Source: an uncultured delta proteobacterium
GTDB lineage: Bacteria > Desulfobacterota > Binatia > DP-6
Direction: 5' to 3'
Assembly (NCBI GenBank): GCA_963815115.1
Contig: CAWFFN010000007.1
Span: 416,001 to 480,000, forward strand
Length of the DNA stretch: 64,000 nt
Shown here: positions 3,881-59,669 of the stretch, one piece after another
How the letters are laid out: each line of letters opens with the position of its first letter
How positions within the stretch are numbered: position 1 is the first letter of the stretch
Notes under the pieces: generated by a model
Databases searched by the model: none
Told to the model about the DNA's origin: nothing
The model's input: only the letters and a program-made list of their open reading frames with translations
Made by a program: the position numbers and the translations under genes

Positions 3881-3885
3881 GCGGG

Positions 3886-39305: not shown

Positions 39306-39554
39306 GGGCCGCCCCCCGTCAGATCGAATGCGATGGAGGGCGATAGCACGGCACGGCAAACGGAGGAAGCACCCTCGGAGGTTTCTGACAAATCGCGGGG
39401 TAGGCTCCCACCCCTACCTGCCGAACCTGTGGCAGAGCCGAGGCCGGGCTGCCGGAGCATCGGCCTTGCAGGGCACCGACCACCGAAAAGCGTAGGCTGG
39501 CGCGGCTTCTTCGACCGCCGTGCAGCGGGTGGGCAGGTCACTCCCTTCGTGCCC

Positions 39555-40031: not shown

Positions 40032-40068
40032 GAGGGGACAACATACCTGCGGCGGCGGCCGGGTACAC

Positions 40069-40118
40069 GCGCCGGGCAGATGGCTGGTGAGCACGAAGAG
40101 CGACCACGCCCTTCATGC
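40069..40118. repeat. Dispersed ~50-bp repeat with hairpin, copy 1 (copy 2 at 54552-54601)
   Basis: GCGCCGGGCAGATGGCTGGT identical in both copies, followed by a 12-bp-arm imperfect palindrome. Confidence 0.85.
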
Positions 40119-40123
40119 TTCCG

Positions 40124-41245: not shown

Positions 41246-41341
41246 CGCCCGATCGGAGCACGATCGTCGCGGACGTACAAGGGAGCCGAATCGCTCGCTA
41301 CGGAAGCGCCGCGGGCTGGCAGGGCCAGGACGAAATATCCG

Positions 41342-41503
41342 AACCTCGCCGCCGAGGGCCCGCCGGACACCGTGGCGCGCTCGATCTCGGGCCCCCGGAC
41401 CGCGAGCGTGAATGATCGGTATCAGATCACGCAGGAGGCGGCGAGGAAGGCCGCGCTGGCGGCGATGGCGGCGCGGATCGCGGAGCAGGTCCGGGGTTCC
41501 TGA
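41342..41503 (+). pseudogene. C-terminal remnant of a tyrosine integrase
   Basis: PDTVARSISGPRTASVNDRYQITQEAARKAALAA aligns with PDVVARTITGHRTASMQSRYNITQESAQRAALAA at 52900-53038. Confidence 0.85.
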
Positions 41504-41512
41504 CGAAGAGCC

Positions 41513-41534
41513 GCATGGACACCCTGCATGGACA
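41513..41534 (+). repeat. Paired GCATGGACA direct repeats (putative arm sites of the relic element)
   Basis: GCATGGACA-CCCT-GCATGGACA just after the integrase stop, same position as the GTTGACGCAC pair at 53051. Confidence 0.65.
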
Positions 41535-41566
41535 TCGGTTTGGAACGAACGACCTCGGCCCGGTGG

Positions 41567-41595
41567 TTGACCCCCGAAAGGCGAGCGGCTACAAG
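41567..41595 (+). promoter_or_regulatory. Sigma70-like promoter before the tRNA 5' half
   Basis: TTGACC-N17-TACAAG; homologous to 53104-53131. Confidence 0.7.
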
Positions 41596-41608
41596 CACTT
41601 CCGCTCTT

Positions 41609-41649
41609 GCGGGTGTAGCTCAGTTGGCTAGAGCGTGTGCTTGCCAAGC
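41609..41649 (+). tRNA. 5' half of tRNA-Gly(GCC), ending 3 nt after the anticodon loop (left att site of element A)
   Basis: 41 nt identical to 53146-53186, then divergent. Confidence 0.93.
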
Positions 41650-41747
41650 TGCTGAGGACCCGACCCGTAGCCGTCTAGAACCAGTGATAGCGGGGGCTTG
41701 CGCGTGGGTGCGTAGGCCACAGCAGGCCCCCGCTCGGCTACCGATCT

Positions 41748-41765
41748 GTTGACGCGCGTTGACGC
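41748..41765 (+). repeat. Paired GTTGACGC direct repeats (putative arm sites, left end of A)
   Basis: GTTGACGC-GC-GTTGACGC about 100 bp inside the left core. Confidence 0.7.
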
Positions 41766-41795
41766 AGGCTGAGACGGGCGGCGGCGCGAACCAGA

Positions 41796-42189
41796 TCAGA
41801 AGGGGTCATTCCCACCCATCCACTCCCGCAAGCCAGGGGTCAACGAGTGGTTCGTCTTGCAGGTACGGCAGTGGAAGGTGTGCCTCGCCGCGTCGGGGTT
41901 TCTCGGCACCAGACTCCATCGGTCGTTCGCGGCACAGGAAGGACAGAAGGGGTGCGGCTCCGGGTTGGTCGCCGACGAAACCCCACGGGATGCCATCGAG
42001 GGGTTCGACATCGTGCGGCGTGAGGCCCCGCTTGCGTTGGAGGGCCGCGACCTCTGCTGAGAGCGTCTCCAGCTGCTGCTTCTGCTGGTCGATCTGCTTC
42101 TGAAGCTCGGCGAGTGTCTCATGAACCTTGACCCACGGACGGAACCAATCCCAGCCGCGTTTCACCCAGGCCACTGGCAAGAAGTGCAT
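41796..42189 (-). CDS. Hypothetical coiled-coil plus zinc-ribbon protein (probable frameshift near 41965)
   Basis: ELQKQIDQQKQQLE in one frame; PFCPSC..FHCRTC in the adjacent frame. Confidence 0.55.
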
Positions 42190-42194
42190 TGCCC

Positions 42195-42623
42195 TCAGTG
42201 TCTCGTCACTGCGATCCCGATCTGGACGAGCATCAGGACAACGACCAGTACGTTGAGCAGCCAGACCCGTCGACTCAGCTGATTGCCGGTCTCAACCGTG
42301 CCGTTCAACGCCTTCGCCCCATCCCGAAGAGCGCCGGTCAGCGCGTCGAGCTGGCTGGTGGCGTCCGATGCTCCCTGCTCCATGGCCTTCGTCAGACCGC
42401 CGACTTTGCTGCCCAAGTCCATTAGGTTCGCGGAGACGGCGTGCGTCGCGCGGTTCAACTCTGAAGCCACCATCACCGCGAGTCGTGCATCCAACTCGGT
42501 TCTTCTCTCCTGCCCGAACGCGGTGGCAGGGGGGACCTGGCCGAGTACCTGCCGGATGCTGTCGGGCATTTCGTAGTCGTCAGGCAGCTTCGGCGCCGGC
42601 GGACTCTGGCGGTTGTCCGGCAT
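42195..42623 (-). CDS. Hypothetical protein with C-terminal TM helix
   Basis: Purine-rich RBS; amphipathic helix then VWLLNVLVVVLMLVQIGIAV. Confidence 0.65.
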   Translation of the reverse strand: MPDNRQSPPAPKLPDDYEMPDSIRQVLGQVPPATAFGQERRTELDARLAVMVASELNRATHAVSANLMDLGSKVGGLTKAMEQGASDATSQLDALTGALRDGAKALNGTVETGNQLSRRVWLLNVLVVVLMLVQIGIAVTRH

Positions 42624-43433
42624 GATCGATCCCCCTTTCGGTTCCTCGCTGGTAACGGCTAGGGCATGGCGAAGCTATCCCCCGGTCCATCTTCCACAGG
42701 GGCCCTTCGTTTGAGGGTACCTCTGCCGCGACGACTGTCTGGTCGGGTCGCTCGCCGCCGCGCCGCCTCCACCGTGCCCGGATTGGCCGACTCGGCGGCG
42801 AGCGCCCAACACCAAAACGAAACGCGGCACGCTGGGGTTGACCCGGCCCGTATGAGTCGTCGACCCTTTGCCTGAGCCGTGGCACCCCCCGCGACTCAAA
42901 CCGGCTGACAGTAGCGACCGGCAGAAATGGTCTCACAATCTGGCGCGGACCCCTTCCTAGCCGTCTAGACCCAATCCTGGCGGGGTTCCGCCGCGTGGCG
43001 CGCTGGCCACGGCAGACCCCCGTCGGCTACCGAGTCACGGCGGCAGACGCGCACAACATCCTGCTGTTGAGAACGATAACCATAGGTTGCGACTTCGGCT
43101 GATCGTAGCCATCGAGTGATGGGACTGATGCCGGCGACTGAGCGCGCGCCGCACCTCTGCCCGAGTTCTGCGAATCGACGAGTTCCTGCGCTTCCGAGTG
43201 AGGCTCGATCGCGCGCCCGACGCGGTGGTGCCATGCCAGGGCTCGGTCGGCGCCCAACCGTCGGGAGGCCAGACACAACGTCACGGCGAACGCGACACGG
43301 TGTACGGACCGCCGCGACGCAATGTCGGCCAGCCGCACAAGATGGCGACGAGCCAAGGTCGATGCCGTCGCGTGTTCCCTCCGGACGCGCTGTGGCGTCC
43401 CGACCAGTCGCTGTGGCAAGATGACACGCGCGT

Positions 43434-44403
43434 ATGTGGCCCTGGTCGACCGCCAGGATATTCGTGAGCTATCGGCGTGGCTCCGCTGGAGGATGGACGC
43501 CGCGGCTAGTCGACACGTTGAAGCGGCGCATCGCGTCGAAGAGGATCTTCGTGGACGTCGAAGGCATCGAGGCCGGCGACGATTTCGCGAAAGTCATCGA
43601 GCGCGAAGTTTCGAGGTCGTCGGTCGTGTTGGCGATCATCTCCCCCGGTTGGAGCTCCATCGCCGACGCACAGGGCCGTCGACGCCTAGAGGACCCAAAG
43701 GACCTCGTTCGGATCGAGATCGAGACAGCCCTCGCGCATAGCATTCGGCTCATTCCGGTCCTCGTCGGAGGATGTCCTCCTTTGGTGGCCACCGACCTGC
43801 CCGAGTCAGTGCAGGCCTTGGCGGAACGTCACGCCGTCGAGATCAGCGACAAGCGGTGGAACTATGACTGCAACATTCTCGCCAGCGAGCTGGCGAAGCT
43901 CGTTCCCTTCAGGGTATGGAACATCCGACGTGCTGTGACGGTCGGTGTTTGCGCGCTCGTGCTCTTGGCCCTCGCAAGCATCTACGATGACAAGTCGACC
44001 CAGCCCCCCGTATCGAGGCCGACAAACCAATCGCGCGACGCGTCGCAGCCGAGCTTGCCGCACCCTGCAGTTCCGCCACCATCCATTGGAATTGACGCAC
44101 GAGCTATTGACGCAGCCGCCCGTGCACGGGCCAATGACGCGGTCCGCCGTGCACAATCGGCAGCTGGGAGGGCAGCGGAGGCCGGGTATCTGCCTGAGCG
44201 CATTGGACACGGTGTCCGATTACGCCAAGAGCCTTGGACGCCAGTCCGTTGTCGACGCGGATGAGGCTGCCAGAAGCGCCGTCGCCGCAGCCGAGCAGGG
44301 CGGCCCCGACGCGCCCGGCGTTGCCGAGTCCGCAGCCACGAGAGCCGAACGCGACGCTGCGCGCGTCAACAGTCTGCTCGAGCAAGAGATGGATCGACGC
44401 TAA
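43434..44403 (+). CDS. TIR-domain membrane protein (probable frameshift near 44190)
   Basis: IFVSYRR..IFVDVEGIEAGDDF..VVLAIISPGW..DLVRIEIETAL..LIPVLV; TM AVTVGVCALVLLALA; Ala-rich tail continues in another frame to 44403. Confidence 0.85.
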
Positions 44404-44800
44404 CGCCTGTTCGATCAAGAGACAGGTCGAAGGTCTCTCCGCTGAGTTCCGGCGGTTCGTCGCTAGCCCTTCCCTAGCCCACCCCTAGCCCAGGATCATC
44501 ACCATGCCCAATCGGCGGGACCGCAACCGCATCGACTCGGATATCCGTCTCCCACGACGCCGTTCTCGTCGTCATCGAGTTGCCATCAGACCGTCGATGC
44601 TGATCCCGCTGGTTGCCCGAGTTGCTCGGCATCCCGGAGACTGAGGCGTTGCAGCTGCTCGATGACCTGGAGGCTGTGGGGCTGCCTCGTGAGCGCGACG
44701 GGGCCGGTGCAGTCGAGAATGCGTGCCAGCGATGCCGCGAAACTCTGGGTCGGCGGTTAACGTTGCTCGTTCGGTGGTCGGCCGGTAGGCTCAGACTCCA

Positions 44801-45685
44801 GTGCCCACGACGCCACCGCGTGACCTGCTCGACCGCGACTTGAGCAAGGCCCAGATGCGGGAGGCCATCGAGGTTGCCGTTCCGCTGCTCCAAGAAGTCG
44901 TGAACCATGGTGTGGCGGTACTGGCCCGTTGCCTTCCCGTGGTAAAGGACGAGGAACACCACCTCGCCATCCTTCTACTGTACCGGCATTTCCTGGAGAT
45001 GGTCGACGGCGTGGAAGTGCTCCTGGGGGCGCCAGCCAGCAGCGCGGCTCAACTGTTACTTCGGAGCGCCTTCGAGTTCATCCGCCATCAAGTACATGAT
45101 CGACGCAGACACGCAGCGCCGCGCCTTTGCTTACCTGGCTGCCCAGGCACAGCGCGAGATAGCGGCGCTGTGCACAGTGACGAAGAAGTACCCCGACCTT
45201 GTTGAGGCGAAGCACGTCGCCGAGAACATGATGACGTTCCAGGACCGGCTCGATCGACCAGGATGGCGGGAGGCGAACGAGGAGTTGCTGCGACTCGCCA
45301 GGAACGCGCTCGAAGAACGGGAAGGTTCGCACTAGTCCACTGGTTTTCCGCGTGGGGCGGTCCAGGTACGCTCGCGGACCTCGCCGGGCGACTCGGCACG
45401 GCGAAGGCGAGGGAGTACGACATACTCTACCGTCAGTGGTCAGCCGTCGTCCATGCCGGCGATATCGAGAGCAACCTGAAGAGAGGGCCCAGTGAGAGCA
45501 TGGTCATCCGGCGCCTACGTCTGTCTGTCGACTTCGGCGGGATAGTAGACTTCGCAGTCAACTTCGCCTACGAGACGGCCCGCGATGTACTTTCCCTCTA
45601 CCGCCCAGGCGAAGAGCGCGCGCTTGCCGAGTGGTTCCTTCGCGAGGTTCGTGACCGACGCAACCGGCTCACTGGCACGGCCTGA
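44801..45685 (+). pseudogene. DUF5677-like helical protein split over three frames
   Basis: LLRSAFE, HWFS..GGP..LADLA, YDILYRQWSAVVH across ORFs 44801, 45096 and 45263. Confidence 0.65.
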
Positions 45686-46384
45686 TTGGTTACGCAGGGA
45701 GATTCCCGGAGGGATCCGCGCCGACTCGACGCGCACCGGAACCCTCTGACCGCCGCCGCGTGGCTGTACGGGGATCCTCAGATCCAACCAGGGGCATCCT
45801 CGTCGGGGGGATGGACGTGCCACCCACGCCTCAGCGGGCCGCAGCGCCCGCCTGGCGCGCGCTGGGGGCCGTGTTGCGCGCGGTGCTTGCGTGTCTACGT
45901 CAGCGGGACCTCGGCCTCGACCTCGGCGTAGTCTCGCGCCCGAAGCGCCGCATGCGGCCGTACGGCCGGGCGGCAGATGCACCCGGCCCGGCGCCTCCTC
46001 GTCGGGGCCAGGACGCCGGGGACGTGCACGGCACGACCACCACCACGGTGGCGCCGTGACGGCCATCATCGCCGCCCCGCTGATCGACCCGCGCTATGCG
46101 CTGGTGATCGCGGTCGCCCTCTTCGCCTGTGCCATGGCGGCGATCGGGGCCGAGCGAAAAAATATCAGCGTTCTACATGCGGGGCGCCCGCGTACCCGGC
46201 TATCTTGAGTCGTAGACGTGCGGGATGGAAGAAGACCGGGCCCATGGGCCCTGACGGGCAGTAGGGTGATGGGAGATAAGCCTCCCCTTGACAGAATGAC
46301 AAGAAATTCCTTCCACTACGGCAAGGCCGGGTTTGTTAAGAGCGCACATGCCAAGGTCGACCGGGCCCTCACGGGTCGGGCGGG

Positions 46385-46441
46385 CTGGACGTCGACGACA
46401 ACCTGGACGTCGACAACAGCCCTGGACGTCGACCGACAACC
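46385..46441 (+). repeat. Three tandem 18-19-bp repeats with core CTGGACGTCGAC
   Basis: Units start at 46385, 46403 and 46422. Confidence 0.8.
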
Positions 46442-46962
46442 CACCTCCGTCATCGAGCGCCGGTTGGAACCGGACGCCCGTCAGGAATGCCCCTGGTACG
46501 CACACAGACGGCCGGAGACGCGCTTGCCCGTACGGGCCGGATTCGTCGCCTGGCCGTTGGCCCAGGAGGGCCGCAAATGGCCCCGGTGCTAGACAGGATC
46601 TCTCCTGCCGTAGCAGATACTGCATGCTGGCTGGGTGCTGTAGAGGCCTCGTGTAGCCCTGCGCGGCCGTAGGCCGGGTCATCCGTCCAGCCTGGGCGTG
46701 GGAAAGGCCGAAAACTGCCCGCGCATCGCGAAAGGGAATGCGTGAGGGGCCAGCCGCCATCGGGACCGAACTTCGAGAACCGACCCGGACCCCCACCCCC
46801 GGCCGTACGGGCCGTGGTTCCGGTGAGCTGCCTTGCTGCGGTAGTACCTTCTCCGCATCGTGTGCATCTGCAAGAATTCTTCTTGCCAGGTATACCCCGT
46901 TTGGGAGGCCGGAGCTTTACATTAGACGCTAGTCTGTGGTAAACGGAGGGCATGACAACACG

Positions 46963-47693
46963 GTGAAAGCGATAGGGTACTGCGCGTCTAGACGACGCGC
47001 AGGGCAGCAACGGCGGCGGCCTCGCTGCACAACGCGAAGCGATCACGCGGCTAGCGGACGCACGCGGATGGCAGCTGGTAGAGGTGGTCGAGGACGTCGG
47101 CGTGTAGGGCAGCGTGCGCTGGCGATCGCGCGCCGGGGCACGGGCGCTGGCACTGCTCCGGGATGGGGGCGCTGACGTGCTGGTGGTCAGCAAGCTAGAT
47201 CGCTTGTCGAGGTCTGCCACGACCTCGCCGGGCTGCTCGAAGAGAAGGCGAGACGTCGGAGGATAACGGAAGCGCCGGGGTGAGTACACCAGCTGGCGCC
47301 TGGTGTCGGCGACCTCGGCGAACTTGATATGACCACGCCCGTGGGGGAACTGGTCGCGAACGTCCTCGGCGCGCCAGCCGGATGGAACGGCGCATGATCG
47401 GCGTGAGAACGAGCGAAGCCTACGGGCAAGCAGCAACGCGCCGGGCTGCGTCTGGGCAGTGCACGGCGATGGCAGACGAGACGCGGGCGCTCGTGTTGTC
47501 GCTCTACGCGAAGCACCGGGGCTGGTCGGCGTGGGCCTCGGCGCTCAACGAGCGCGAGGTACGACGGCGAGCGGGGGCGTGCGGTGGTACCGAGCAGCGT
47601 GCGCAGCGTCGTGCTGGCGGCCAGCGCGACGTGCAGCGTTGCGGCCAGCACCTCGGCGCCGTCGGGACGACTGGCGCGGCTACATGCGCGTGA
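46963..47693 (+). pseudogene. Serine recombinase (resolvase-type), multiply frameshifted
   Basis: KAIGYC, WQLVEVVED, ADVLVVSKLDRLSRS, DMTTPVGELVANVL, ERRMIGVRT across frames. Confidence 0.8.
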
Positions 47694-48492
47694 CCCTTGC
47701 TCGGTGTCTCGGTCGCGGGTAGCGCGTGGGTCTCTGCCTCCTCTGTAGTGGCACTACGGCTCATGGCTCATGACCCATTCGCTCTACGGGCGCGTCGCTA
47801 AGTGCCTGATAACGCTTGCCTGTGACCCACCGTTCTCGCTGGCAAACCCCCACGGCTCAATAGGCTGGGATGTGCGGCGAACGCGCGTTCTGAAGACACA
47901 TAGGAGGGTCCACCATCGGCCTAGATTTCTCGGTCCATGGTCCGCTGACTTCGAGGTCTGGTTGACAAGGTGCTTTGGCGGCGATCTGGAGGCGTCGGTC
48001 GGCGTAGTCGAGGTGGCGCACCAACTGTCCGCTCGTCCGCGAGAGGACAGTGTCCGGCGACCCGTGGAAGACGAGAACGCTCGCGACGGGCAGGTGGAAG
48101 CGGAGGTGGACATGAGGACGAGAGCGGGGCGCGGGTTTCTCCCTGACGTCCGATGTGGCTCTGGTAGCTCAGGTCTCGATCAGTACGGTGCTGAACGCAG
48201 AACGACCGGGGCGAATTGATCCCGGTCGGGTCGAATACTACCAAAAGGGCTTCGCATTTTCGATCGGGTCGAGGTGCGCTGCTGGACGGCGGCACGGGCC
48301 ACTGGTGGTGAGGGGGTGTGATGGCGATGTGGAACGACAACGAACCGACGACGCGACCTGGCGGCGCTCCCGGCCGAGGCTGAGCAACTCAAGGCCGAGA
48401 GGCCCATTGGCGAACTGTATGGCAGGCCGAGGAGCGCGCCCGCAAGCAGGCGCGAGGCGGCGGCTTGTCGGGCAGCGGAACTGGCGACGCGC

Positions 48493-49492
48493 GTGGAGCG
48501 ACTGCGCGACACAGCGATGCCGCTCCTGCCGCACCTCACGGCGGACCAACTCACCGGCACATTCGAGCCGGTGTTTGTGCAGCTGCTCGATCAGTTGGAG
48601 GAAGACGCCGCCTGGGACGTTGATACCGACGCCGTCGGCGAGCTGCGATGGGAACTCGGGGGCGCGTACAAGCGGCGCCTGAAGGTGGTGCAGGACGCGG
48701 ACCAGAAGCGCCTGAAGGTGGTGCAGGACGCGGCACGCGTCGCGGACTTGGAGGCCGCCATCGCGCGGTTCAGCGCACATGTGTTCGCACCCGATGCCCA
48801 TCGGCAGCCGTGGTGGTGCACGTTGGTCTTCGAGGCCCGGTACCTCAAAGACGATTGCGGTGCGCTCCCCGTGGAGCAGGACCGCACACGGTTGCTGCAG
48901 GCACTGCAGCCGGCCAGGCTGCGGGTCGAGGAGCAGGAGCAGCGCGCCAAGCAGGACGCCGCAGCGGTCGAGCTGGAGGCGTGGCGCACCCGCGCCGTGA
49001 CCTGCTCATGGATCCCGGACCTATGCTTCCTCGATGCGGTGCCGTGCGACTACAAGGCTGCCTGGCGCCAGATCGATGATCTGCCCGCTGCGCAGGTGCT
49101 CCGGGGCTTGCGTGACTGGAGCGTGTGGAAGTCGTTCCCGCTCGACGCCTTCAGGGTGGTGCGTGACTACATGAACCAGGCTATCCGCCGGCCAGCGGAT
49201 CATCGTCGCTGGGACTGGCCCGCTGACGCCGAGACCGGGGCGTTCGATGCGCAGGGCCGGCCGTTCCCGCACAAGTTCGGATTTCTGGCCGTGCTGCGGG
49301 CGGTGGCATGGCAGCGCGGGATCGGCACCGCCGAGGCGGCGTGGAAATGGGACCAACGACGCCGGGCGAAGGTGAAGGTCGCCGCCATCTGCGGCGGCGT
49401 GTGCCGCGCCTGCGGTGCGCCGGAGGCGGATGCCGTCGAGCCCTTGGAGTTAAACCACCTCCTGTACGGCCAAGGTGGTCAGAAGCGAAAGG
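48493..49492 (+). pseudogene. Hypothetical protein with C-terminal HNH-like zinc domain, interrupted by IS3
   Basis: GGVCRACG..LELNHLLY just before the IS end; internal 33-bp-period duplication at 48675-48733. Confidence 0.55.
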
Positions 49493-50758
49493 TGGTCTTG
49501 CCCGTCCGGGCGAACACCTGAGTTAAGCCGCTGCGCGGCGATTCCAGTATCGGTCTCGTAGTCGACGGGGCTCATCATGTCGATGGCTGAGTGCGACGCT
49601 GGCGGTTGTAGACGGCTTCGATCCAGTGAACGGTCGCCGTACGTGTGCGAGCCGGGTCGGCTATGACCGGGGCTCGATCAGCGGAGCTTGTAGGTCGCGA
49701 AGAAGGACTCGGCGAGGGCGTTGTCCAGCAGACGCCGGTCTTTCCCATTGACTGTTTCACGCTGTGCGCATCGCACAGTGCCCGGAACTCGGCCGAGGTG
49801 TATTGGCTTCCCCTGTCCGAGTGGAAGATAGACACCTCAACGTTTCCGCTGCGCGTAGCGACGGCCATCATCAACGCATCGCACACGAGCGATGCGCGCA
49901 AGTGACCGGCGAGGGAGAATCCGATCACGCGACGCGAGAAGACGTCGATGACCGTCGCCAGGTACAGCCAGCTCTCCCACGTGCGGATGTAGGTGATGTC
50001 GCTGACCACAGCATGTCGGGGGACGGCGCTTCGAACTTCCCATGCACGAGATCGGGGATCGCCGGCGGTGTCGGTTCCGGTGTCGTCGTACGGACAGCGC
50101 GGTGGGCGACGACCTCGCAGGCTCGCTGCCTTCATCAACCGCGCTACGCGCTTGCGGCCGACCTCGTGGCTCTGGGCCTGCAACTCAGCCAGCACGCGGG
50201 GCACGCCGTATTGGCTGTCCGACGCCGCATGGATCGCCTTGATCTTCGCCAGCAGTGCCGCATCGTCTCGTTCACGCTGCGACGGCGGCCCGTCCTGCCA
50301 CTCGTAGTAGGCGGTGCGGGAGACCTGGGCGATCCGGCAAAGCTGCGTCACCGAATACCGACGACTCTCCGCCTCGACGAACCGGTACCGGCTCATCGGG
50401 TCTCCATCGCGAAGAAAGCCGCCGCCGCTTCAAGATGTCGCTCGTCGCGGAGCACCGCACCTCGCGCTGCAACGCGCAGCTCCTCGCGCTCCTCGGTCGT
50501 CAGCCCTCCCGTTCGCCGCGTCGACCGCACCTGCTCGACCAGCGGCGCACCGCTGTCTCGCTCAGGTCCATCTCCCGACAAATCGTCGGGATCGTCCGGT
50601 CACTCTGACGCCAAGGCGACGACTCGGCTTGAACGAACTCGTGAACGATCGCTGTGGGCGGCGACTCGCTGCCTTGCCTCCACTTCTTCCGCATCGAACA
50701 CCTCCTCGTGGGCTCACGCCACATCTGGGGTGTTCGCGGTGAGGGGCGAGTAAGGTCA
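49493..50758 (-). mobile_element. IS3-family insertion sequence, frameshifted orfA/orfB
   Basis: orfB YGVPRV, GRKRVARLM, SDITYI, LYLATVIDVFSRRVIG, HSDRGSQYTS; ends TGGTCTT..GCGAACACC and TGACCTT..GCGAACACC (reverse strand). Confidence 0.88.
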
Positions 50759-51462
50759 AGACGGACAAGTTGCGGAGCGACTCATCACGCATGCCGCGAC
50801 ATGGGGGACCGCTGTGGTGGGTCGAGCTGCTGTGCAGCGATGCATGCCATCAGACGGAGGCCAACGGGCCGGTGTCGTGTGGGGGCGACGCTCGATATGT
50901 GCGGACCGGCGAGCCACGCGGGTGATGACTTCCCGAGGGCTTGGCTTGCACGGTGCCTGTCGCGGCGCGCACGGCCCGGCACCGGCCCGTAGGGGCGGTT
51001 AGGCGTCAGGCATGAGGTTGTACTTGCAAGCAAACTGGGTAGTCAGGATGGAGTACCCTGACTATAACCCCCTCGCAATCCTGACGCCTCAGTGAACATG
51101 CCGAAAGGACGCGGGAATTGACCATCTGGGCACATCTGCGCTTCCGGTCCACCTCGGACTGCCTGACGTGCTCACATGCCATAGCACGTTGTGTCCGCGC
51201 GCGGGTCGATCGCCGAATGCATGTACTTCGACTCGATGTCCGAGTTGATGGACTCCGACTCGGTCGGCTCGACCGACGGCCAACCGCCCGCGCTGAGCCT
51301 TGGCGCGGAGCGCGTGAAGTCCGGCCACGGGACTGACGCCTGCCGAAATTCCTGCAGGCCACACACGCGATCCCGGCCACGGGGTCGCCTCGCAGATGCG
51401 TCGTCAGGCGGCTTTTTTTGCGGGGCGTAGCGAAACCGGCGACTACCCTATCCTCGTAGGTA

Positions 51463-51838
51463 GTGAAGACCGAACGAATAGGCAGCCGCCTGCGCCGCTG
51501 CCGACCGTCGCGGACATCGACCACTTGCCGCTGGCCGAGTTGCCGGCGTTGCCAGCGCGATGTCGGCGCTGCTCGCGTACATCACCCTGCGGCTGCGGTC
51601 GTTGGTGACCGACCACGGCGACGACTGCGACGTGTTCGACGTCGTGGAGGCCGCGCGTCGCATCGGCTGCAGCGAGGACGTGCTCCGCGAGCACGGCCAG
51701 ACGTGGGGCGTCGCGCTCGTGTTGACGCGGGACAAGAACGGCAGGCCGACCCGCGTGGTCTACCCTCGCGCCTTGGTGCGGGCGTACCTCGAACGGCGTC
51801 TGCCGAACATGCCGGCGACAACGTCGGCAGCCGCGTGA
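51463..51838 (+). CDS. Excisionase-like HTH protein (5' part frameshifted)
   Basis: FDVVEAARRIGCSEDVL..VYPRALVRAYLE directly upstream of the integrase. Confidence 0.65.
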
Positions 51839-51890
51839 TAGCTCGGCGGCACGGGCGTCGAGACCGACGGCCCGCAGAAGGAGGAACGAC

Positions 51891-53038
51891 GTGATGGCGA
51901 AGAGATCGAAGCTGCCGCCGGGCCTGTACCGGCGGCGGAAGCGCGACGGCACCCCCGGAGAGGTGTGGTGGTTCTGGTACCGGCCGCCGGGGAGCAAGCG
52001 CGCGGTGCAGATGAGCACGCGCACGGTCGACCTCGTCGAGGCGGAGCACTTCATGCACCGCAAGCTGGCCGAGGATACGCAGGCCCGCGCCGCGCGGATC
52101 GTTACGGCCTCGGTCACGGTGGCCGACGCGCTGGCGCTGCTCCGGAAGCACCGCGACGCGCGTGGTACCGCGATCCACCGCGCTCTCTACGCGGGCTTGC
52201 AGCACGCACTGGGGCATCTACTCGTCGGTGATCTGCGCCCCGTCCACCTCGATGACCTGTGCGCCAGGTGGCGGGCCGTGGCATCGAGTACCCGGACCGC
52301 GACCTGAAGAGGAACCCGCAGCACTCCGTCAGCGGGACGACGTGCAACCACGGCATGCGGATGCTCCGTCTGGCCCTGCGGCTCGCGTCCGTCAAGCTGG
52401 CGGTGCCGTTGCCGCCCGGCCTCGGCGACCCGCTGGCGTACCCGAAGTTCTCGGAGCCGATCACCGGCCAGTACATCCCGCCGGGTGACTTCTACGCCAT
52501 CCTGAGCCACATCGACGCGGGCCCGAAGCAGGCCCTGACCGAGGTTGCATACCTGACCGGAGTCCGGAAGGGCCAACTCCGGAAGACCGAGATACGGAAC
52601 GTCGCGTGGAGCGTGGCACCGTGACGGCGTTGGTGTGGGACTTCGGCAAGGTGAAGAACCGGCGCGAGCACGTCGTTGCCTGGCAGGCAGGGCGCAGGAG
52701 ATCATGCAGGAGTTGTGGAAGGGCCGGCGCCCCGGCTGCCCGATCTTCCACCTCGACGGCCGGTCGGTCGGGGAGCTGCGGAGCGAGTGGGAGCGCGCCT
52801 GCACGGCCGCAGGCTTCGCCGTGGGCCGGAAGGCACACGGCTTCGTCTTCCACGACACGAGGCGCTGCGGCGACCACCAACATGTCGGCCACCGGGCACG
52901 CCGGACGTCGTCGCGCGGACCATCACGGGGCACCGGACGGCGTCGATGCAGTCGCGCTACAACATCACCCAGGAGAGCGCCCAGCGGGCAGCACTCGCGG
53001 CCGTCGACCGCCTGATCAAGGCCGGGCGGGGTGCCTGA
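51891..53038 (+). pseudogene. int: Tyrosine integrase with several frameshifts
   Basis: N-terminal GLYRR..VWWFWY arm-binding-like region; TGVRKG (R), VKN (K), HDTRR (HxxR), TGH, SRY (Y). Confidence 0.9.
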
Positions 53039-53050
53039 GATGCCCGGTTT

Positions 53051-53072
53051 GTTGACGCACGCGTTGACGCAC
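53051..53072 (+). repeat. Paired GTTGACGCAC direct repeats (putative arm sites, right end of A)
   Basis: GTTGACGCAC-GC-GTTGACGCAC just after the integrase stop. Confidence 0.75.
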
Positions 53073-53103
53073 GGGGTGGAACGGACGACTTTGGCGCTCC
53101 AGC

Positions 53104-53131
53104 TTGACCCCGCAAAGGCGAGCAGTACAAG
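53104..53131 (+). promoter_or_regulatory. Element-borne sigma70-like promoter for tRNA-Gly
   Basis: TTGACC-N16-TACAAG, 14 bp before the tRNA. Confidence 0.7.
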
Positions 53132-53145
53132 CACTTCTCGCTCTT

Positions 53146-53219
53146 GCGGGTGTAGCTCAGTTGGCTAGAGCGTGTGCTTGCCAAGCACAAGGTCGTCGGT
53201 TCGACCCCGATCACCCGCT
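53146..53219 (+). tRNA. tRNA-Gly(GCC), intact, CCA not encoded
   Basis: GCGGGTG/CACCCGC acceptor stem, TGTGC-TTGCCAA-GCACA anticodon arm, GTCGG-TTCGACC-CCGAT T arm. Confidence 0.97.
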
Positions 53220-53400
53220 CTTACGAAGTCACGGACTTAGGTGGTTGGACCAGTGCCAGGGACCTCCGGGGTTCCTCTTCGCCATCGAGTTCGCTTCGAT
53301 GATTGGCTGAGTCATGAATCTGAGCGTGCCGGGAGGCGGATCGGTCTCGCCGTCGCGGCCCGCGAGCGGCGCGGCACCGTGGCAGATCGGGCGGCGGCAC

Positions 53401-54440
53401 TCACAGGACGCACCTCACCTGCGGCGGGAGCAGCTGGCGGCGCACCAGGTAGAGGTTCGCCAGCGCGAAGAGGCTGAAGGCCCGCGCGAGGTTCTTGGCG
53501 AGGCCGCGATACCGGACCTTGGCAAATCCCCACAGGCGCTTCACCACGTGGAACGGATGCTCGCCGCGGGCCCGGGTCCGCGACCGGGCCCGATTGATCG
53601 CCCGCCACCGCGGGGTGAGCGGCCGGTGCGGACCGGCGGCCCGCCGATTCACCCGATACCGCACGCCCTGGGCTTCGAAGACCTGCCGATCTGCTTCCTT
53701 CCAGTACGCCTGGTCGCCGTAAAGGACGCGTTCCGCACCGTGCAGCAGCTGCGGGAGCTGGGTGATGTCGGCAACCGCGGCATGCGTCGCGGTCACGCGG
53801 TGGACGCGCCCTTCGGATCGGTCCCGACATGCAGCTTCATCCCGAAATGCCACGCGTTCCCTTTCCGCGTCTGCTTCATCTCGGGATCGCGCGCCTGGGC
53901 GGCATTCTTCGTCGAGCTCGGGGCGGTGATGATGGTCGCGTCGACGATCGTCCCGCTCTGCAGCAACAGCCGCTTCGCGGTGAGCAGCTCCTTGACCGCG
54001 GCGAAGAGCGCGGCGGTCAGCCGGTGCTGCTCCAGCAGGTGACGGAAGCGCAGGATCGTCGTCTCGTCCGGGACCACGTCGTCCCCGAGCTCCACCCGGG
54101 CGAACCGCCGCATGGCCTCGCTGTCGTAGAGCGCGTCCTCCGCCTGCGGGTCGGAGAGATTGAACCACTGCTGCAGGAAGTAGATCCGGAGCATCTTCTC
54201 GAGCCCCAGCGGCTGCCGGCCGCGGCCGGCCTTCGGGTAGTAGGGTTCGATCACCGCGAGCAGCTGCGCCCAGGGGATCACGGCGTCCATCTCGGCGAGG
54301 AACTGCTCACGCCGGGTCACCTTGCCCTTCTGGCTCCACGCGATCCCAGCGAACGTCCGCTGCTCACCCATCCCCAACCTCCCGCGCTCGCTCGATACGT
54401 CCCGCTTCTACCCCATCGAGCGACTTGCGCAGAGCTTCCC
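53401..54440 (-). mobile_element. IS5-family transposase (frameshift near 53800) with upstream terminus at 54440
   Basis: KVTRREQFLAEMD, LEKMLRIYFLQQW, IVDATII, HFGMKLH, GDQAY, RARGEHPF..RYRGLAKN; terminus GGGAAGCTCTG; other terminus not identified. Confidence 0.9.
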
Positions 54441-54484
54441 TAACTGCAGTCGTGCATCGCCCGCGCGGCGACCGCGTCCCGGGG

Positions 54485-54514
54485 TGGGCACAATCTGGGC
54501 ACAATCTGGGCACA
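54485..54514 (+). repeat. Three tandem 11-bp-period repeats TGGGCACA(ATC) (putative arm sites)
   Basis: TGGGCACAATC TGGGCACAATC TGGGCACA. Confidence 0.8.
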
Positions 54515-54551
54515 GTCGATGCCGTTACGGAAGGGCAGCGGGCTGGTAGAT

Positions 54552-54601
54552 GCGCCGGGCAGATGGCTGGTAGGTACGAAGGACGAATACGCCCTTCGTG
54601 C
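54552..54601. repeat. Dispersed ~50-bp repeat with hairpin, copy 2
   Basis: Homologous to 40069-40118. Confidence 0.85.
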
Positions 54602-54612
54602 GTCCTAATCCT

Positions 54613-54816
54613 CTCCTAATCTGCAGCTCTGCCGTCCCGACGGCGCCCGGCTCGAACGAGTGCTCCTGCACCGGCGGTCCTGCGCCGTGCCAGATCGCCG
54701 GCATCGGGCCCGACGGTCCGACGTGCGGCGGGACCTGTCCGGAGGGACAGACGTGCCAGGTCGTCGATACCTTTCCGATCCCAGGGTGCCCGCTCCATCT
54801 CTGCGGCTGCCAGTAG
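54613..54816 (+). pseudogene. Orphan Cys-rich C-terminal module, paralogous to the end of the next gene
   Basis: CSCTGGPAPC..GPDG..TCGGTCPEGQTCQ..LCGCQ* versus CACTGGPRPC..GPDG..TCGGTCPEGQTCQ..FCGCQ*. Confidence 0.8.
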
Positions 54817-54909
54817 CGCCGCGTCGGTCGCGCCGACCAGCGCGGCCGCTGGCGCTCGCGGCTCGACCTCTTGACAGATTCCGATCGCGAGGCGCAGAGA
54901 GGGGTCGCC

Positions 54910-55653
54910 ATGTCGGCGCGCTCGGGCTTCCCGGCGGCGATGTTGATCGTGGCGGTCGCCGTCGCGGTGGCGGAGGCCGACACCCCGCCGGCGGATCACC
55001 TCCAGTGCTACGGCGTGCGGCGCGATCCACTCCAGCTGCGGGCGCTCGTCGACCTCTTCTCGAGCCAGTACGGGCTCGCCCCCGGCTGCAGGATCCGGAA
55101 GAGCGCCGTCGAGTTCTGCGTTCCCGCGAGCAAGACCGTGCGCGAGGCGCAGGACGGCGGCACGCGCCCGCCCACGCCGATCACGCCGCTCCCCGGCGTC
55201 GGCGCGCCCGCGGCCGGCGACTACGTCTGCTACAAGGTGTCCTGTCCGGACGAGCAGCTGCCAAAGGAGCAGCCGGTGACGGACCAGTTCGGCGGCCGGA
55301 CGCTGGGGCGATTGCGGACGACGAAGCTCTGCACGCCGGCGGTGAAGGGCACGACGACCAGCAGCACCACGACCACCACCACCAGGTGCACTCAGCCCAC
55401 CACGACAACGAATCCGCCGTGCGGCGAGGTCGGCTGCTTCGGCTGGTGCGCGAACGCGCAGTTCTGCGTGTCGACCGGCCCGACCGCGTCGGACTGCGCG
55501 TGCACGGGCGGCCCCCGCCCGTGCGCGTTCACCGGCCCCGGTCCGGACGGCGGCCTGACGTGCGGGGGTACATGTCCGGAGGGGCAGACGTGCCAGCCGA
55601 TCGACACGGATCCGTCGCCGGATTGCGTCTTCCTGTTCTGCGGGTGCCAGTAG
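54910..55653 (+). CDS. Secreted Cys-rich protein with poly-Thr linker
   Basis: Signal peptide; DHLQCY..FCVPASK and DYVCYK..TDQFG..LCTPAVK half-repeats; Thr run; Cys-rich tail. Confidence 0.85.
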   Translation: MSARSGFPAAMLIVAVAVAVAEADTPPADHLQCYGVRRDPLQLRALVDLFSSQYGLAPGCRIRKSAVEFCVPASKTVREAQDGGTRPPTPITPLPGVGAPAAGDYVCYKVSCPDEQLPKEQPVTDQFGGRTLGRLRTTKLCTPAVKGTTTSSTTTTTTRCTQPTTTTNPPCGEVGCFGWCANAQFCVSTGPTASDCACTGGPRPCAFTGPGPDGGLTCGGTCPEGQTCQPIDTDPSPDCVFLFCGCQ

Positions 55654-55660
55654 CCGCCGC

Positions 55661-55795
55661 TCAGCCGCCGACCAGCGCGGCGGCGCGCTCGAAGCACCAG
55701 AACGCGACGAGCGAGCCGATCGCGTAGATCGGCACGAGCCGCGCCCACCCGGGCGGCGCGGCGACGGCGCGACGGAACGCGCAGGGGCGCAGCTG
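55661..55795 (-). pseudogene. C-terminal remnant of a HupE/UreJ-like membrane protein
   Basis: ARLVPIYAIGSLVAFWCFER; upstream part absent. Confidence 0.6.
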
Positions 55796-55830
55796 TGACG
55801 GCAGCAGGTGTTCGTACTCGAACTCGACGC

Positions 55831-56152
55831 TCACCCGTGGACCTCGATCAACGCGAACGAGGTTGTCGCCGATACCGCCGCGCTGGTCTCGATCCGGACC
55901 TGGGAGGATGGCGGATACACGACCACTCCCCACGCGCCGTTCGTGCCCGAGAACATCGCCTGCGACGTCACCGAACTCCAGGGATCGAGATAACGGAGCC
56001 AGGCGCCACCAATGATCGGCTGGAACGCGGCATACCACGTGTTCGCTGCCGCCGAGCTGACGCCAACCAGCAGCGCGCGGTCAGTCGCTGCTAGGGTGAA
56101 CGCCGACGACACGGTCTGTCCGGCGACGACAGTGCCGTAGAAAGACCGCCAT
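55831..56152 (-). CDS. Hypothetical beta-rich, possibly virion-associated protein (frameshift near 56140)
   Basis: ATG at 56152 is one base out of frame with ORF 55831..56112; tightly coupled to upstream small ORFs. Confidence 0.5.
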
Positions 56153-56153
56153 G

Positions 56154-56318
56154 TCAGGGCTCGATGATCTTGCCGAGGAGGACGCGCTGCGCCACCAGGG
56201 CATCGCGGATCGCCGTGAGCCCGGCGTCGGGGGTGCGCTTGAGCACGCCGTCGAGGCGGCTGATCGCCGTCGAGAGATAGTCGCGCGCTTCCCGGAGTTC
56301 CACGTCCCAGTCCGCCAT
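56154..56318 (-). CDS. Small hypothetical protein
   Basis: MADWDVELREARDYL..; operon spacing. Confidence 0.55.
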   Translation of the reverse strand: MADWDVELREARDYLSTAISRLDGVLKRTPDAGLTAIRDALVAQRVLLGKIIEP

Positions 56319-56320
56319 GT

Positions 56321-56509
56321 TCAACCCGCCTTCGCGATCGCAGTCGCCGCCAGCGCGTCCAGCACGCGACGGGCGCGATGCGCCAAGCCTTCGGCCTTCT
56401 GGCTCTCGATGCTGCCGCTGCGCCGCAGCGCGTCCGCGGCGAGCATGTCGACGCTGTCGAGCGTGAGTCGCAGGGCTTCGTAGAGATCGAGATCGGTGTT
56501 CATGTTCAT
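56321..56509 (-). CDS. Small hypothetical protein
   Basis: GGAGG RBS; ATG overlaps upstream stop. Confidence 0.55.
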   Translation of the reverse strand: MNMNTDLDLYEALRLTLDSVDMLAADALRRSGSIESQKAEGLAHRARRVLDALAATAIAKAG

Positions 56510-58131
56510 GCCGCCACCTCCCGCTGCGCCAGCCGCTTTTCGGCCCACTGCTGCAGGTAGACCTGGCCTGCTCTAGCGTCATGTTCGCCGCGAGGATCTC
56601 GTTGGCCAGGTCCTGTGGCACGATGAGGGTCGTCACGAAGCGGAACTCGTGCCACGGCTTCGTCTCGTCCTCGCCGAAGCTGCTCGCCCACGGCCGGATG
56701 TGCACCTTGCTCTGCGTTTCCCACAACGTTCCCCGCTGCAGCGTCGCCCGCGCCGTCTCCAGGTCCTTGGCGATGTAGTAGAGGCCGCAGTGTTGATCCG
56801 CCGGCACTGTCGCCAGCGCCGCTTGCACCAGTTGCTGCGCGCGGCTCATCGGGAGGCCAACGGATGCCCGGTGCGAACCATAATTTCGCCGATGCGCAGC
56901 CGCTCGCTGTAACGCGCGGCGAGAGGTTGTGCTTCCGGCCGATCGCAACGAGGGCTTCCTCGAACTCGTCCGCGGTACTGTGTCGCTGTTCGCTCGCGGC
57001 CACGTGGCGCACCAGAGATTGCTTCAGCGGATCGGCCGCCACGTCCTCGGCGCTGAAGTTGTACCTGGCCCGCACGGCGTCCCGCCGCTCGGCCAGCGTG
57101 GTACGCGCCGGCTTCGGCACCCGCAGTTGATCGAGATCAACGGGGACGTCGTGCACGGCGACGGGCAGACCGTCCTGGTCCTCGAGGTGCGCGATCGCCA
57201 GCGCGAAGCTGTCTTGGCTGCCGCCGCTGGGGTCGACAAAGCCGTGGTAGGTCAGGTCTCGGAGCGGCCGGAGCCCTTGCCGCCCAGGAACCACGCAACC
57301 CTCGAGCACCTCGCGATCGACGAACCCCGCGACGTCGGTTCTGAACTGCGCCCCGTACTCGGCCGCGGCGGCGACCGGGTCCGCCTCGTACGCGGCCTCG
57401 ATGATCCGCGCCGGCAGCACCGGGTTCATGGTCGCCGTGGGACTGCACCACACGAGCACCGGATCGTCCTCGCGCCCGTAATGGCTCCGGAACGCCTGCC
57501 ACAACGCCCCGCGCCGGCTGTAGGGCGAGCTGATGCAGACCAATCTGGCGCCGGGGAGCGTGCTCAGCCCCGGGCGGACTGCGGCCAGCACCTCGGTATC
57601 CGGCTCGGTGGTGCTCTCGGAGCGCCAGTAGGCCAGCTCGTCGCAGATCACGCAGGCGAAGCTGTAGCCGCGCGTCCCCCTGGCCGATGCCGTCGTCACC
57701 TCGACGCGCGCCCGGCCGGTGAACTCGATGCTCTCGGCCGACCGCCGCACCACCTGCGCCGCAAGTGGCGGACACGCGTCCACCAACCCCTCGACGTACT
57801 GCAGCACGTTGCGACTCTGCGGTCGGTCGCTGGCGACGATGGCGATCGTTGCCCACTCGCCCGGCGCCAGGTGCGGGCGCCAATCCCGCAGCACCGCCGC
57901 CTCGACGGCGAGCGCTGCCGCAAGCCGACTCTTGCCACCGCGTCGGCCGACGATCGCGTACGCCTCCACCACTGGCGCCGTCGGAAGCCGCTGGCGTCCA
58001 GTACAGCGCTGGAACAGCTCGAGGGCTTCTCCGTGCACGGGACGGCCGTCCAGGGCCGCCTTGAACGTGCGCCAGGGCCGCCAGGACGCCGCGCGGAAGT
58101 CCGGGAAGAGCCGGAGGACGTCTGGCGTCAC
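56506..58131 (-). pseudogene. terL: Phage terminase large subunit, truncated in the nuclease domain and fused to unrelated sequence
   Basis: Walker A VGRRGGKS, Walker B VICDE, coupling motif ISSP, nuclease start FVDPSGG; resemblance lost at ~57150. Confidence 0.85.
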
Positions 58132-58527
58132 GCCTCGCCCTCCTGCGCCTCTGCCTCCTGGGCGCGGATGAACTCGGGCAGCGACGGCACCGGCTGCGCG
58201 CGACGCTGGAGTCCGATGTCGCACAGCAGCGATTGCAGGTGCGCCTCGGCCCGGCGCACGTGTTCGACGACCGGCCACTCACGCCGATGACGCCGATCGA
58301 CCTGACAGCGCATGGTCGCGATGTAGGCGTTAGTCCTGGTCACGCGCATGGCAGCAGCGACGGCCAGGTCGATCAGGATGCCCTTCGCCGTCGACACCTG
58401 CTCGGCACCGCCGCAGTCGGCCATCAGCTGCTCGCGCAGCAGTGCCATCGCTTTCCTGTTCCTCGGGCGTGAGCGTCTTCACGTAGAAGCTCGAGCGCCT
58501 GTACGGTCGCTTTGCCGGCGTATCCAT
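58128..58527 (-). CDS. Putative terminase small subunit (frameshift near 58450)
   Basis: Overlaps terL start (GTGA); helical DCGG..VSTAK..LIDLA, IGLQRRAQPVPSL. Confidence 0.55.
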
Positions 58528-58566
58528 GCCCGACCTTGTCCTCGAGGAAGAGCCTATCAGGATCGC

Positions 58567-58735
58567 GGGGACACCGCAGGGGACACTGACCGGAAACCCG
58601 CGCCCAGCATGGACTTTTCGGCGGACATGTGCTCGCCGAGCACAGGCGCTGTGCCTCGAGCACGTCTTGGCGGCAATGCGCCGCTCGACGCGATCAGCGC
58701 AGTGTCGCACAGCATGGTGTCCCCTGAGTGTCCCC
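58567..58735. repeat. Two oppositely oriented pairs of GGGGACAC (putative arm sites near right end of B)
   Basis: GGGGACAC at 58567 and 58579; GTGTCCCC at 58717 and 58728. Confidence 0.7.
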
Positions 58736-58842
58736 GACACCACGCCATCGCAGGACAATGGACGAGCAGGGGCGTGCAAGAGGATACTTGAGACGACGGA
58801 CCTTCCGGTGCTGTGCGCTGTCCTGGTTCCCTGGGCCGCAGC

Positions 58843-58886
58843 GCTTGCCAAGCACAAGGTCGTCGGTTCGACCCCGATCACCCGCT
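58843..58886 (+). tRNA. 3' half of tRNA-Gly(GCC) (right att site of element B)
   Basis: Identical to 53176-53219; upstream sequence unrelated to the tRNA. Confidence 0.93.
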
Positions 58887-58947
58887 CTCAAGAAATCACG
58901 CACTTGGAAGCGCCCGACGCGTGTCGGCCTGCCTTTGCGGGTCGCCT

Positions 58948-59469
58948 CTACTGGTGCGGTGCCGGCCGGAGCCGTGGAATCCACCGCGGCACGGCGTGGC
59001 AGTACGTCTCGTACTCCGCACCGAACTGCCGTCGCAATGTCGGCTCCTCGTAGAGCACGACGAAGAGGTGGAAAGCGAGGGCGACGACGGCCGCATACGT
59101 GAACACGGCGGGGCTCGCGAAGAGGAATGCCTGTCCCACCAGGAGCGTTAGCACCGAGACGTAGCCCGGGTTGCGCACCCAGCGGAATGGCCCCCCCACG
59201 ACGAGATGTTCGGTCGGGGCGATCGGCGCAGGCGTCCCGTTGCCCTCGATCACGAAGCGCAGGTTGAACGCGGCAAAGAGCGGCAGCGCGAGCACGAGCA
59301 GCACGACCCCAAGCCAGCGCGTCATGGTCAACCCCAGCAACGGCGGCGCGAAGCGCCAGCCGGTGAGGAGCCACGGCCCGAGGACGACCACGGTGCCCGG
59401 CACGAGCAGAACGAAGATGATCGTGCCGAACGCTGCCCGGCGCAGCGCGCGTTGCTGGTCCCGTGTCAT
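58948..59469 (-). CDS. Isoprenylcysteine/phospholipid methyltransferase family membrane protein
   Basis: GTPAPIAPT..LVVGGPFRWVRNP.Y, EEPTLRRQFG.EY..Y..VPRW. Confidence 0.9.
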   Translation of the reverse strand: MTRDQQRALRRAAFGTIIFVLLVPGTVVVLGPWLLTGWRFAPPLLGLTMTRWLGVVLLVLALPLFAAFNLRFVIEGNGTPAPIAPTEHLVVGGPFRWVRNPGYVSVLTLLVGQAFLFASPAVFTYAAVVALAFHLFVVLYEEPTLRRQFGAEYETYCHAVPRWIPRLRPAPHQ

Positions 59470-59669
59470 GGCGCGACCCGAGCATGCCATCGACCGGAGG
59501 TCGTGGGGAAGGTTGACGCTGGCGGCCGAGCTCGAGCGCGAGCCATCGGCCGGTCCGCCGTCGTCGTCTCGGCGTGCGGAGCGAGTCAACTGCCGGCGCC
59601 GAACGGAACGTCTCGACGATTCGAGCAACCGTGTCGGCGCGCCGTGCGTTCGGATTCCCACATCAACAG

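Follow-up and report, generated by a model that had tools for sequence, protein, structure and literature searches.

Two integrative elements of opposite polarity probably meet at the single tRNA-Gly(GCC) gene of an uncultured Binatia bacterium

We analysed a 64,000-nucleotide stretch of the genome of an uncultured delta proteobacterium (GTDB lineage Desulfobacterota; Binatia; DP-6), namely positions 416,001 to 480,000 of contig CAWFFN010000007.1 in assembly GCA_963815115.1, hereafter called the window. The sole tRNA gene that ARAGORN calls in it, a tRNA-Gly(GCC) at 53146-53220 (+; Rfam score 68 bits), lies between two displaced halves of itself, and we are fairly confident that this array records two site-specific integrations that occurred independently and in opposite polarities, by strand exchange within the anticodon loop. 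Coordinates are window positions throughout, and names of the type C7 refer to contigs of the organism's own genome (G000, 6.9 Mb), among whose roughly 60 tRNA genes ARAGORN called no second GCC glycine tRNA. From left to right the array consists of a 5' half of the tRNA (41609-41649), element A, the intact tRNA, element B and a 3' half (58843-58888), an order that the initial annotation of the window had already proposed and that the repeats bear out. The same annotation had suggested invasions from opposite sides. This holds up: A has its own integrase and arm sites, the junction of B recurs in a 3'-type array in the relative G012, and the two types, one displacing the 5' half and the other the 3' half, are found separately in relatives.

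The repeats that delimit the array are precise. The 5' repeat is exact over 48 nt and on the same strand (41602-41649 equals 53139-53186, the fragment lying upstream of the gene), and comprises 7 nt of upstream sequence followed by tRNA positions 1-41. A conserved upstream block precedes the displaced 5' half, and the homology there is longer than had been noticed at first (41356-41649 against 52894-53186, 73% over 301 nt). The 3' repeat (53176-53238 against 58843-58905, 94% over 63 nt) is co-oriented with its fragment downstream, and contains the 3' half of the tRNA (its last 45 bases) together with 18 nt of downstream sequence, so that the similarity runs on to 58905. Just as the initial annotation had stated, the only overlap of the two repeats is GCTTGCCAAGC, which consists of the 7-nt anticodon loop (53178-53184) with 2 bp of stem on each side and is a palindrome but for its central base. 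The 5' identity block stops at 53186, 2 bp 3' of the loop, and both repeat breakpoints sit exactly 2 bp outside it. Judging from its conservation in relatives, a TTGACC..TACAAG block upstream of the tRNA might be its promoter; a promoter scan of 41000-59500 found no sigma-70-type site. The conserved module upstream of the tRNA was also considered as a known RNA, with a negative result in Rfam, and is actually the end of an integrase gene; Rfam searches of the window and five further loci returned nothing beyond tRNAs.

In the explanation that we favour, this single tRNA gene would be an integration hotspot that tyrosine-integrase elements entered in both known polarities, with crossover in the 7-nt anticodon loop. 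On this reading, integration of A would have pushed the resident 5' half to the left, the gene being rebuilt from the front half and upstream region that the element carried, and integration of B would have brought in a replacement 3' half and pushed the resident one to the right. The tRNA that is expressed would then have foreign DNA on both sides of the loop. Along the integrase, the two types would share one layout of the attachment site (att) and differ only in which way the tRNA runs through the core, and the near-palindromic anticodon stem-loop would permit both directions.

Element A (41650-53145) is an integrative island of the 5' type, delimited by the 5'-half repeat; it also supplies positions 1-41 of the intact tRNA (53146-53186), so it reaches 53186. 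Its GC content is 64-68%, against about 69-72% in the flanks. A tyrosine integrase gene (51891-53038, +) is directed towards the tRNA and ends 108 bp short of it. As assembled, this gene is disrupted by four frame shifts, each a 1-bp deletion, and is readable in three frames: in tblastn, residues 1-381 of the intact 381-aa homolog P0006 align across frames to 51894-53035 (E 2e-121). All five longer homologs of its N-terminal part carry PF00589, and three of them are 380-381 aa long; a six-frame PF00589 search gave no match in the window, the integrase of A included. Across the class, its N-terminus was found in 2 of 401 genomes, the organism's own and, as a weak match by a tRNA-Leu, G006. Directly upstream lies a 92-aa open reading frame (ORF; 51560-51838, +; GC content at third codon positions, GC3, 0.93) without a match in family searches, which by position only is a candidate excisionase or regulator.

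The attachment site of lambda-type integrases, attP, has arm-type repeats on both sides of the core. In A, a tandem TTGACGC pair is present at the integrase-distal end (41749-41765, +; copies at 41749 and 41759, +105/+115) and another at the integrase-proximal end (53052-53070, +; copies at 53052 and 53064, -129/-117), the distances being counted from the central base of the anticodon. Of the four same-strand tandem TTGACGC pairs in the 6.9-Mb genome, three belong to A. Given this anatomy (integrase, two arm pairs and 5' half), the attP of A would read integrase, arm pair, tRNA upstream block with 5' half, core, arm pair. The third pair of A (44092-44113) lies within the 3' part of a TIR-domain ORF; if A is composite, one of its internal junctions could be here. 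Adjoining the TTGACGC pair, the left part of A has two copies (41668-41745 and 42958-43035) of a GC-rich module of about 75 nt (..TAGCCGTCTAGA..GGCCACGGCAGGCCCCCG..GGCTACCGA), which is present in part in the relative G001 (L001 4401-4461).

Element B (53221-58842), bounded by the 3'-half repeat, spans 53176-58842 when its replacement 3' part of the tRNA is included, and 5.6 kb of it remain. It encodes a phage terminase large subunit in an unbroken 590-aa frame (56509-58278, -; PHROG 2 at 3.4e-18, PHROG 9 at 4.7e-16, and a weak GpA_ATPase match); the 41 ORFs scanned against PHROGs yielded no further phage family. No integrase was found in B either, be it by six-frame PF00589 or Pfam searches or as a tblastn remnant with the G012 integrase, and B is therefore classed as a prophage remnant of the 3' type and not as a complete prophage. 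An IS5-like insertion sequence (IS), with a DUF772/DDE_Tnp_1 transposase in two frames (53400-54445, -; 83% identical to a G001 locus), occupies the spot where in G012 the integrase sits, 137 bp from the tRNA 3' end, and it may have replaced the integrase of B. The arm-type repeats of B (58567-58735) comprise a GTGTCCCC pair at 58717 and 58728 (-131/-120 from the core centre) and, further in, a GGGGACAC pair at 58567 and 58579. Tandem GTGTCCCC pairs number three in the genome, and two of the three are in the right arm of B. The initial annotation had pointed to paired 8-mers about 100 bp inside each flank; with three of the four TTGACGC pairs and two of the three GTGTCCCC pairs of the genome at this one locus, they are real and far from chance.

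This regularity bears on the possibility that the tRNA region was duplicated or rearranged by homologous or illegitimate recombination, or by insertion sequences, and that no site-specific integration took place. Two IS elements do lie within the array, no working recombinase was found, and the outer borders of the accessory region are free of tRNA fragments, all of which such a history would accommodate. It would leave unexplained, however, why both breakpoints lie exactly 2 bp outside the anticodon loop, why rare tandem arm motifs stand at fixed distances on both sides, why an integrase gene is in the canonical position by the site, and why the same junction geometry recurs in G001, G012, L010 and L011. 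We regard this alternative as highly implausible.

The displaced 5' half is itself preceded by an older accessory block, A0 (36089-41608). In three relatives the gene that ends here at 36088 is followed by tRNA-Gly, directly in G002 and G012 and 1.4 kb later in G003. Towards its right end, A0 holds an integrase remnant, then an arm pair and the conserved upstream block, after which comes the displaced 5' half. The remnant (41342-41479, +) is the C-terminal part of a tyrosine integrase with the catalytic Tyr region (..SGPRTASVNDRYQITQE..); it matches the G012 integrase in tblastn (39% over 46 aa, E 5e-6) and the C-terminus of the A integrase in tblastx. The arm-type pair is a tandem ATGGACA (41515-41534, +; -129/-116 from the anticodon centre), of which the whole genome has three. 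Given the integrase remnant with its own arm pair, and given that relatives place the tRNA directly after the gene ending at 36088, the displaced 5' half (41609-41649) is not the chromosome's original but what remains of the right end of an older element of the 5' type. On the other side, the stretch that corresponds to the right flank conserved in G002 and G012 is at C7:~489.9-490.4 kb, about 10 kb past the window; between these native flanks, some 38 kb of accessory DNA lie at tRNA-Gly(GCC).

Relatives show the two types apart. We surveyed half-tRNA fragments in 25 genomes of the family, and the counts that follow are among the matches listed, with 25 weaker matches outside the listing. Fragments with a 5' half only occur in 2 of the 25 genomes (the organism's own and G001), and 3'-half-only fragments at 88% identity or more in 3 of the 25 (the organism's own, G012 with two, and G008). 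Thus, among these matches, G001 is without a 3' half, G012 and G008 are without a 5' half, and G002 and G003 have neither, so the comparison with related genomes that the initial annotation had called for supports two separable elements. In G001 the 5' half has the same junction geometry, with two GGACAC copies at +113/+125, and the intact tRNA follows a truncated, frameshifted integrase with 80% DNA identity to the right end of A. G012 presents the classical layout of tRNA, arm pair and convergent integrase, 137 bp from the tRNA 3' end, within a tandem 3'-type array. Of the two displaced 3' halves of this array, the second has a B-like junction and arm pair, to which the right arm of B is homologous (92% identity over 66 nt); none of 300 shuffles reached the score of the two arms.

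For relatives of the A integrase, a search with alignment A3 was run on genome and metagenome contigs. Genome contigs gave no confirmed locus among 82 pattern matches, and metagenome contigs gave three among 144 matches. In one of these, L011, an intact integrase (3612-4724, +; 56% identical to the A-type clade query A3) is followed by two GGACAC copies at -128/-117 and then by an intact tRNA-Gly(GCC) (4831-4905, +); no outer tRNA halves were seen on this contig. In another, L010, an intact integrase 69% identical to A3 is followed by an arm pair and a tRNA-like segment that ends 2 bp past the anticodon loop, where ARAGORN called no complete tRNA. On our reading this segment would be a tRNA 5' half; its comparison with the genome's own tRNAs was uninformative. 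Taken together, the layouts of L010 and L011 make the succession of integrase, arms and tRNA 5' part a property of the clade of A integrases.

These loci also bear on a second alternative, which the initial annotation had itself considered, in which one 17-kb element split the host tRNA at the 11-bp core, did not rebuild it and carries a complete replacement, as in tRNA-dependent lysogeny. The outer halves share only GCTTGCCAAGC, which would fit the core of about 10 bp given in PMC10865867; a complete tRNA of the same isotype lies inside, and phage genes are present. Against this, homology between the inner tRNA and the left flank continues for about 300 bp upstream, and that with the right flank for 18 nt downstream, and the arm motifs pair the left end of A with its right end (TTGACGC) and not with the right end of B. 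Moreover, the integrase is the immediate neighbour of the internal tRNA, an arrangement shared with L011, on whose contig outer halves are not seen; relatives carry 5'-only or 3'-only fragments, and the right junction of B is found again in the purely 3'-type array of G012. A single element is, for these reasons, quite improbable, and we return to the two integrations.

The initial annotation had further described the array as a mirror image. Read on the tRNA strand, arms of the 5' type are GGACAC-like or TTGACGC (A, A0, L011 and G001), those of the 3' type are GTGTCC or GTGTGC (B and the G012 elements), and the two types keep equivalent distances from the core. The 5' type has its integrase on the tRNA strand, the 3' type (G012) on the opposite one; hence the arm motifs follow the direction of the integrase in either type, and the tRNA alone is reversed. 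Homology between distal arms was sought in six pairs of 150-nt arms (5'-type by 3'-type), globally aligned in four orientations. The 5'-type distal arm of G001 aligned with the reverse complement of the first 3'-type arm of G012 with a score of 21.5 (68% over 138 nt), a value that neither 500 shuffles nor 20000 random genomic 150-mers attained; in its three remaining orientations the pair scored 5.5-6. BLAST of the G001 left arm against the mirrored G012 element gave no match, the homology being visible in the global alignment of the 150-nt arms only, and no similarity was found at the gene level. The left arm of G001 against the mirrored right arm of B had a whole score of 3.0, which is not significant, and only the position of the GGACAC pair agrees. 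For the left arm of A against the reverse-complemented right arm of B, the score of 10.5 was reached by 12 of 500 shuffles and by 141 of 1000 random genomic 150-mers; the inverted likeness of these two flanks that had been reported is thus not above background. What stands of the mirror image is the orientation of the arm motifs and the match between the G001 and G012 arms. A and B are distinct elements, opposite in polarity and each with its own arm motifs, and not mirror copies of each other.

Food for speculation is whether one lineage of integrase and attP in this bacterial family can switch polarity, which we consider unlikely. Save for its central base, the 17-bp anticodon stem-loop of tRNA-Gly(GCC) is palindromic, and the mirrored arm homology of G001 and G012 would fit such a switch, as would the integrase-centred orientation of the arms. 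If it were true, the central base of the 7-bp overlap would be the main cue to the direction of the tRNA, and if this base changed in attP and the other tRNA half were captured, an element of the 3' type would become one of the 5' type, or vice versa. Islands would accumulate outwards in both directions from the tRNA, which would serve as a two-sided capture site. Given that A-type and G012-type integrases share 33% identity, any such switch would be old and not ongoing.

Several observations weigh against our explanation. The chimeric tRNA, with its 5' part from A and its 3' part from B, follows from the two-element reading, as the initial annotation had concluded, but the tRNA copies are identical and the chimera is therefore not readable from the sequence. 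The G001 locus is split over two contig ends, and a 3' half might have been missed there. At the outer borders of the accessory region (~36.1 kb and ~73.9 kb), tRNA fragments were searched for and none was found. Significant mirror homology is seen in just one of the six pairs of 5' and 3' arms, BLAST misses this positive pair of G001 and G012, and the integrases of the two types are only 33% identical. Finally, six-frame PF00589 and Pfam searches found no intact recombinase in 41.5-59 kb; with the integrase of A broken and no trace of one in B, the mobility of both would be historical and the array at present immobile.

As assembled, A and B are both decayed. A further possibility, which we hold to be real although clearly the lesser one, is that the two-element model stands, that the frameshifts in the A integrase are local consensus errors and that A is still mobile. 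All four frameshifts being 1-bp deletions would agree with this, as would the IS3 copy 1.1 kb upstream of the integrase (49492-50751), which against its four paralogs has 27 copy-specific 1-bp deletions and no insertion. Nearly all of these deletions remove a C from a CC or CCC run of the + strand, and substitutions amount to 32 against the three closest paralogs and 112 against the fourth. In addition, C-runs are depleted at 47-49 kb of the window, and both arm pairs of A are intact. On the other hand, the orthologous G001 integrase is likewise truncated and frameshifted in an independent assembly, the terminase of B and the flanking genes are unbroken, and the IS5-like copy differs from that of G001 by few indels, which largely compensate each other. 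In a GC3 frame plot of A, noise was too high for a frameshift count in 45.3-48.9 kb. The deletions in the IS3 copy and the integrase, together with the depleted C-runs, are more suggestive of a local consensus error than of ordinary decay, and the IS3 copy may represent either a local assembly error or an odd, deletion-only decay. Contigs from soil metagenomes are of low depth: the best run holds 0.21 of the sampled words, and the few joints, whose sides measure 20-27 letters, include no excision junction. Separately, soil-metagenome run X1 contains short contigs with 0-1 differences to parts of B (53298-53556, 54564-54956 and 58167-58720), and this run contains, at low depth, the organism or a very near relative.

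In A, six-frame Pfam searches recognised only a TIR-domain gene (43434-44264, +; TIR_2, 5.8e-11, with weak ThsB-like matches) and the transposase of the IS3-family insertion sequence (49492-50751, -; rve transposase at 49575-50393; four paralogs in the genome). A0 carries a methyltransferase (39555-40094, -; Pfam; PADLOC mad2 match, 2.9e-18) and an adjoining gene of the baeRF family (release-factor-like; from 40124, -; Pfam), and this pair, in 39555-41265, may form a defence module. Against PADLOC and NCBIfam, the cargo ORFs gave just weak TIR/ThsB-like matches and the mad2-like methyltransferase match. To the right of the displaced 3' half (58889 on), about 15 kb of further DNA extend to the conserved right flank (~C7:489.9 kb). 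This block opens with a PEMT/ICMT-type methyltransferase (58948-59661, -), of which a 91% identical copy is found at C8:797497-798054, beside a weak integrase fragment.

Elsewhere in the family, several genomes have pairs of fragments that are 83% similar to the 3' half of tRNA-Gly(GCC) and start at the same position of the anticodon loop, among them the organism's own (C12:3-49 and C12:11808-11854). Another glycine tRNA is probably a second hotspot, which they mark. The organism's own genome also shares about 0.9 kb of sequence, in two copies (C5:1220405-1222111 and C9:383167-384088), with G001 (L001 1473-2392), at 96% identity between the two genomes. In G001 it lies just downstream of tRNA-Gly(GCC), and a 3'-half-like fragment (90%) stands before the C5 copy, which suggests a recently shared 3'-type element.

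If our explanation is right, the locus offers a clean natural case of an essential single-copy tRNA that was used for integration in both known polarities. The expressed tRNA gene and its upstream region would be wholly derived from elements, and the att layout would be conserved in the frame of the integrase while the target gene is reversed. Intact relatives provide a pair of substrates for asking what sets polarity at a near-palindromic core. For annotation, integrase-poor blocks that flank a tRNA, such as the ~38 kb found here, could be delimited by half-tRNA repeats together with pairs of arm sites.

Both types of element have known counterparts. Table 1 of the Islander study (PMC4383910) lists 5' fragments for 159 islands and 3' fragments for 3760, as well as 2083 anticodon-centred sites, and the Islander filters expect 5' fragments upstream and 3' fragments downstream of the tRNA. 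The 5'-fragment class corresponds to A in that an intact tRNA and a co-oriented upstream 5' fragment bound the island and the crossover is in the anticodon loop. Islands of that class have a tyrosine integrase gene inside; the gene of A matches PF00589 proteins along its full length and is frameshifted as assembled, such that the Islander integrase filter might reject it. A departs from that class in its displaced fragment, which comes from an older island of the same type, and in the fact that the same tRNA also holds a 3'-type element. The element of Zhao and Williams (2002; J Bacteriol 184:859), according to a sentence in PMC6563490, recombines with the 5'-distal part of a tRNA gene, reversing the usual target orientation; by that sentence and the title of the 2002 paper it is like A in both respects. 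Among the ordinary 3'-type elements of the Islander tables (PMC4383910), an intact tRNA with a downstream displaced 3' half is the layout of B, which also has phage genes, and the tandem 3'-type arrays at one tRNA given there resemble the G012 array at tRNA-Gly. Unlike ordinary 3'-type prophages, B is without an integrase and most of the phage.

The tRNA-dependent lysogeny described for actinobacteriophages (Guerrero-Bustamante and Hatfull, 2024; PMC10865867) is similar in that, in the outline given there, a tRNA is interrupted at a short core and a complete tRNA of the same isotype lies inside. It differs in that each junction here consists of a full tRNA half with flanking homology, and arm sites and relatives indicate two elements, both of which rebuild the gene. 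The inner tRNA is continuous with both repeats (48 and 63 nt) and so lies at the junctions, and the ends of the array do not travel together, given that 5' and 3' halves occur separately among the matches listed and that the arms pair within A. Our literature search returned nothing specific on a tRNA occupied from both sides or on polarity set by a palindromic core, which is weak evidence that neither has been published. Islands of the 5' and of the 3' type are both already known, and this array is a tidy example of them and not a new mechanism; what it adds, modestly, is the occupancy of one tRNA from two sides and a view of the att layout centred on the integrase.

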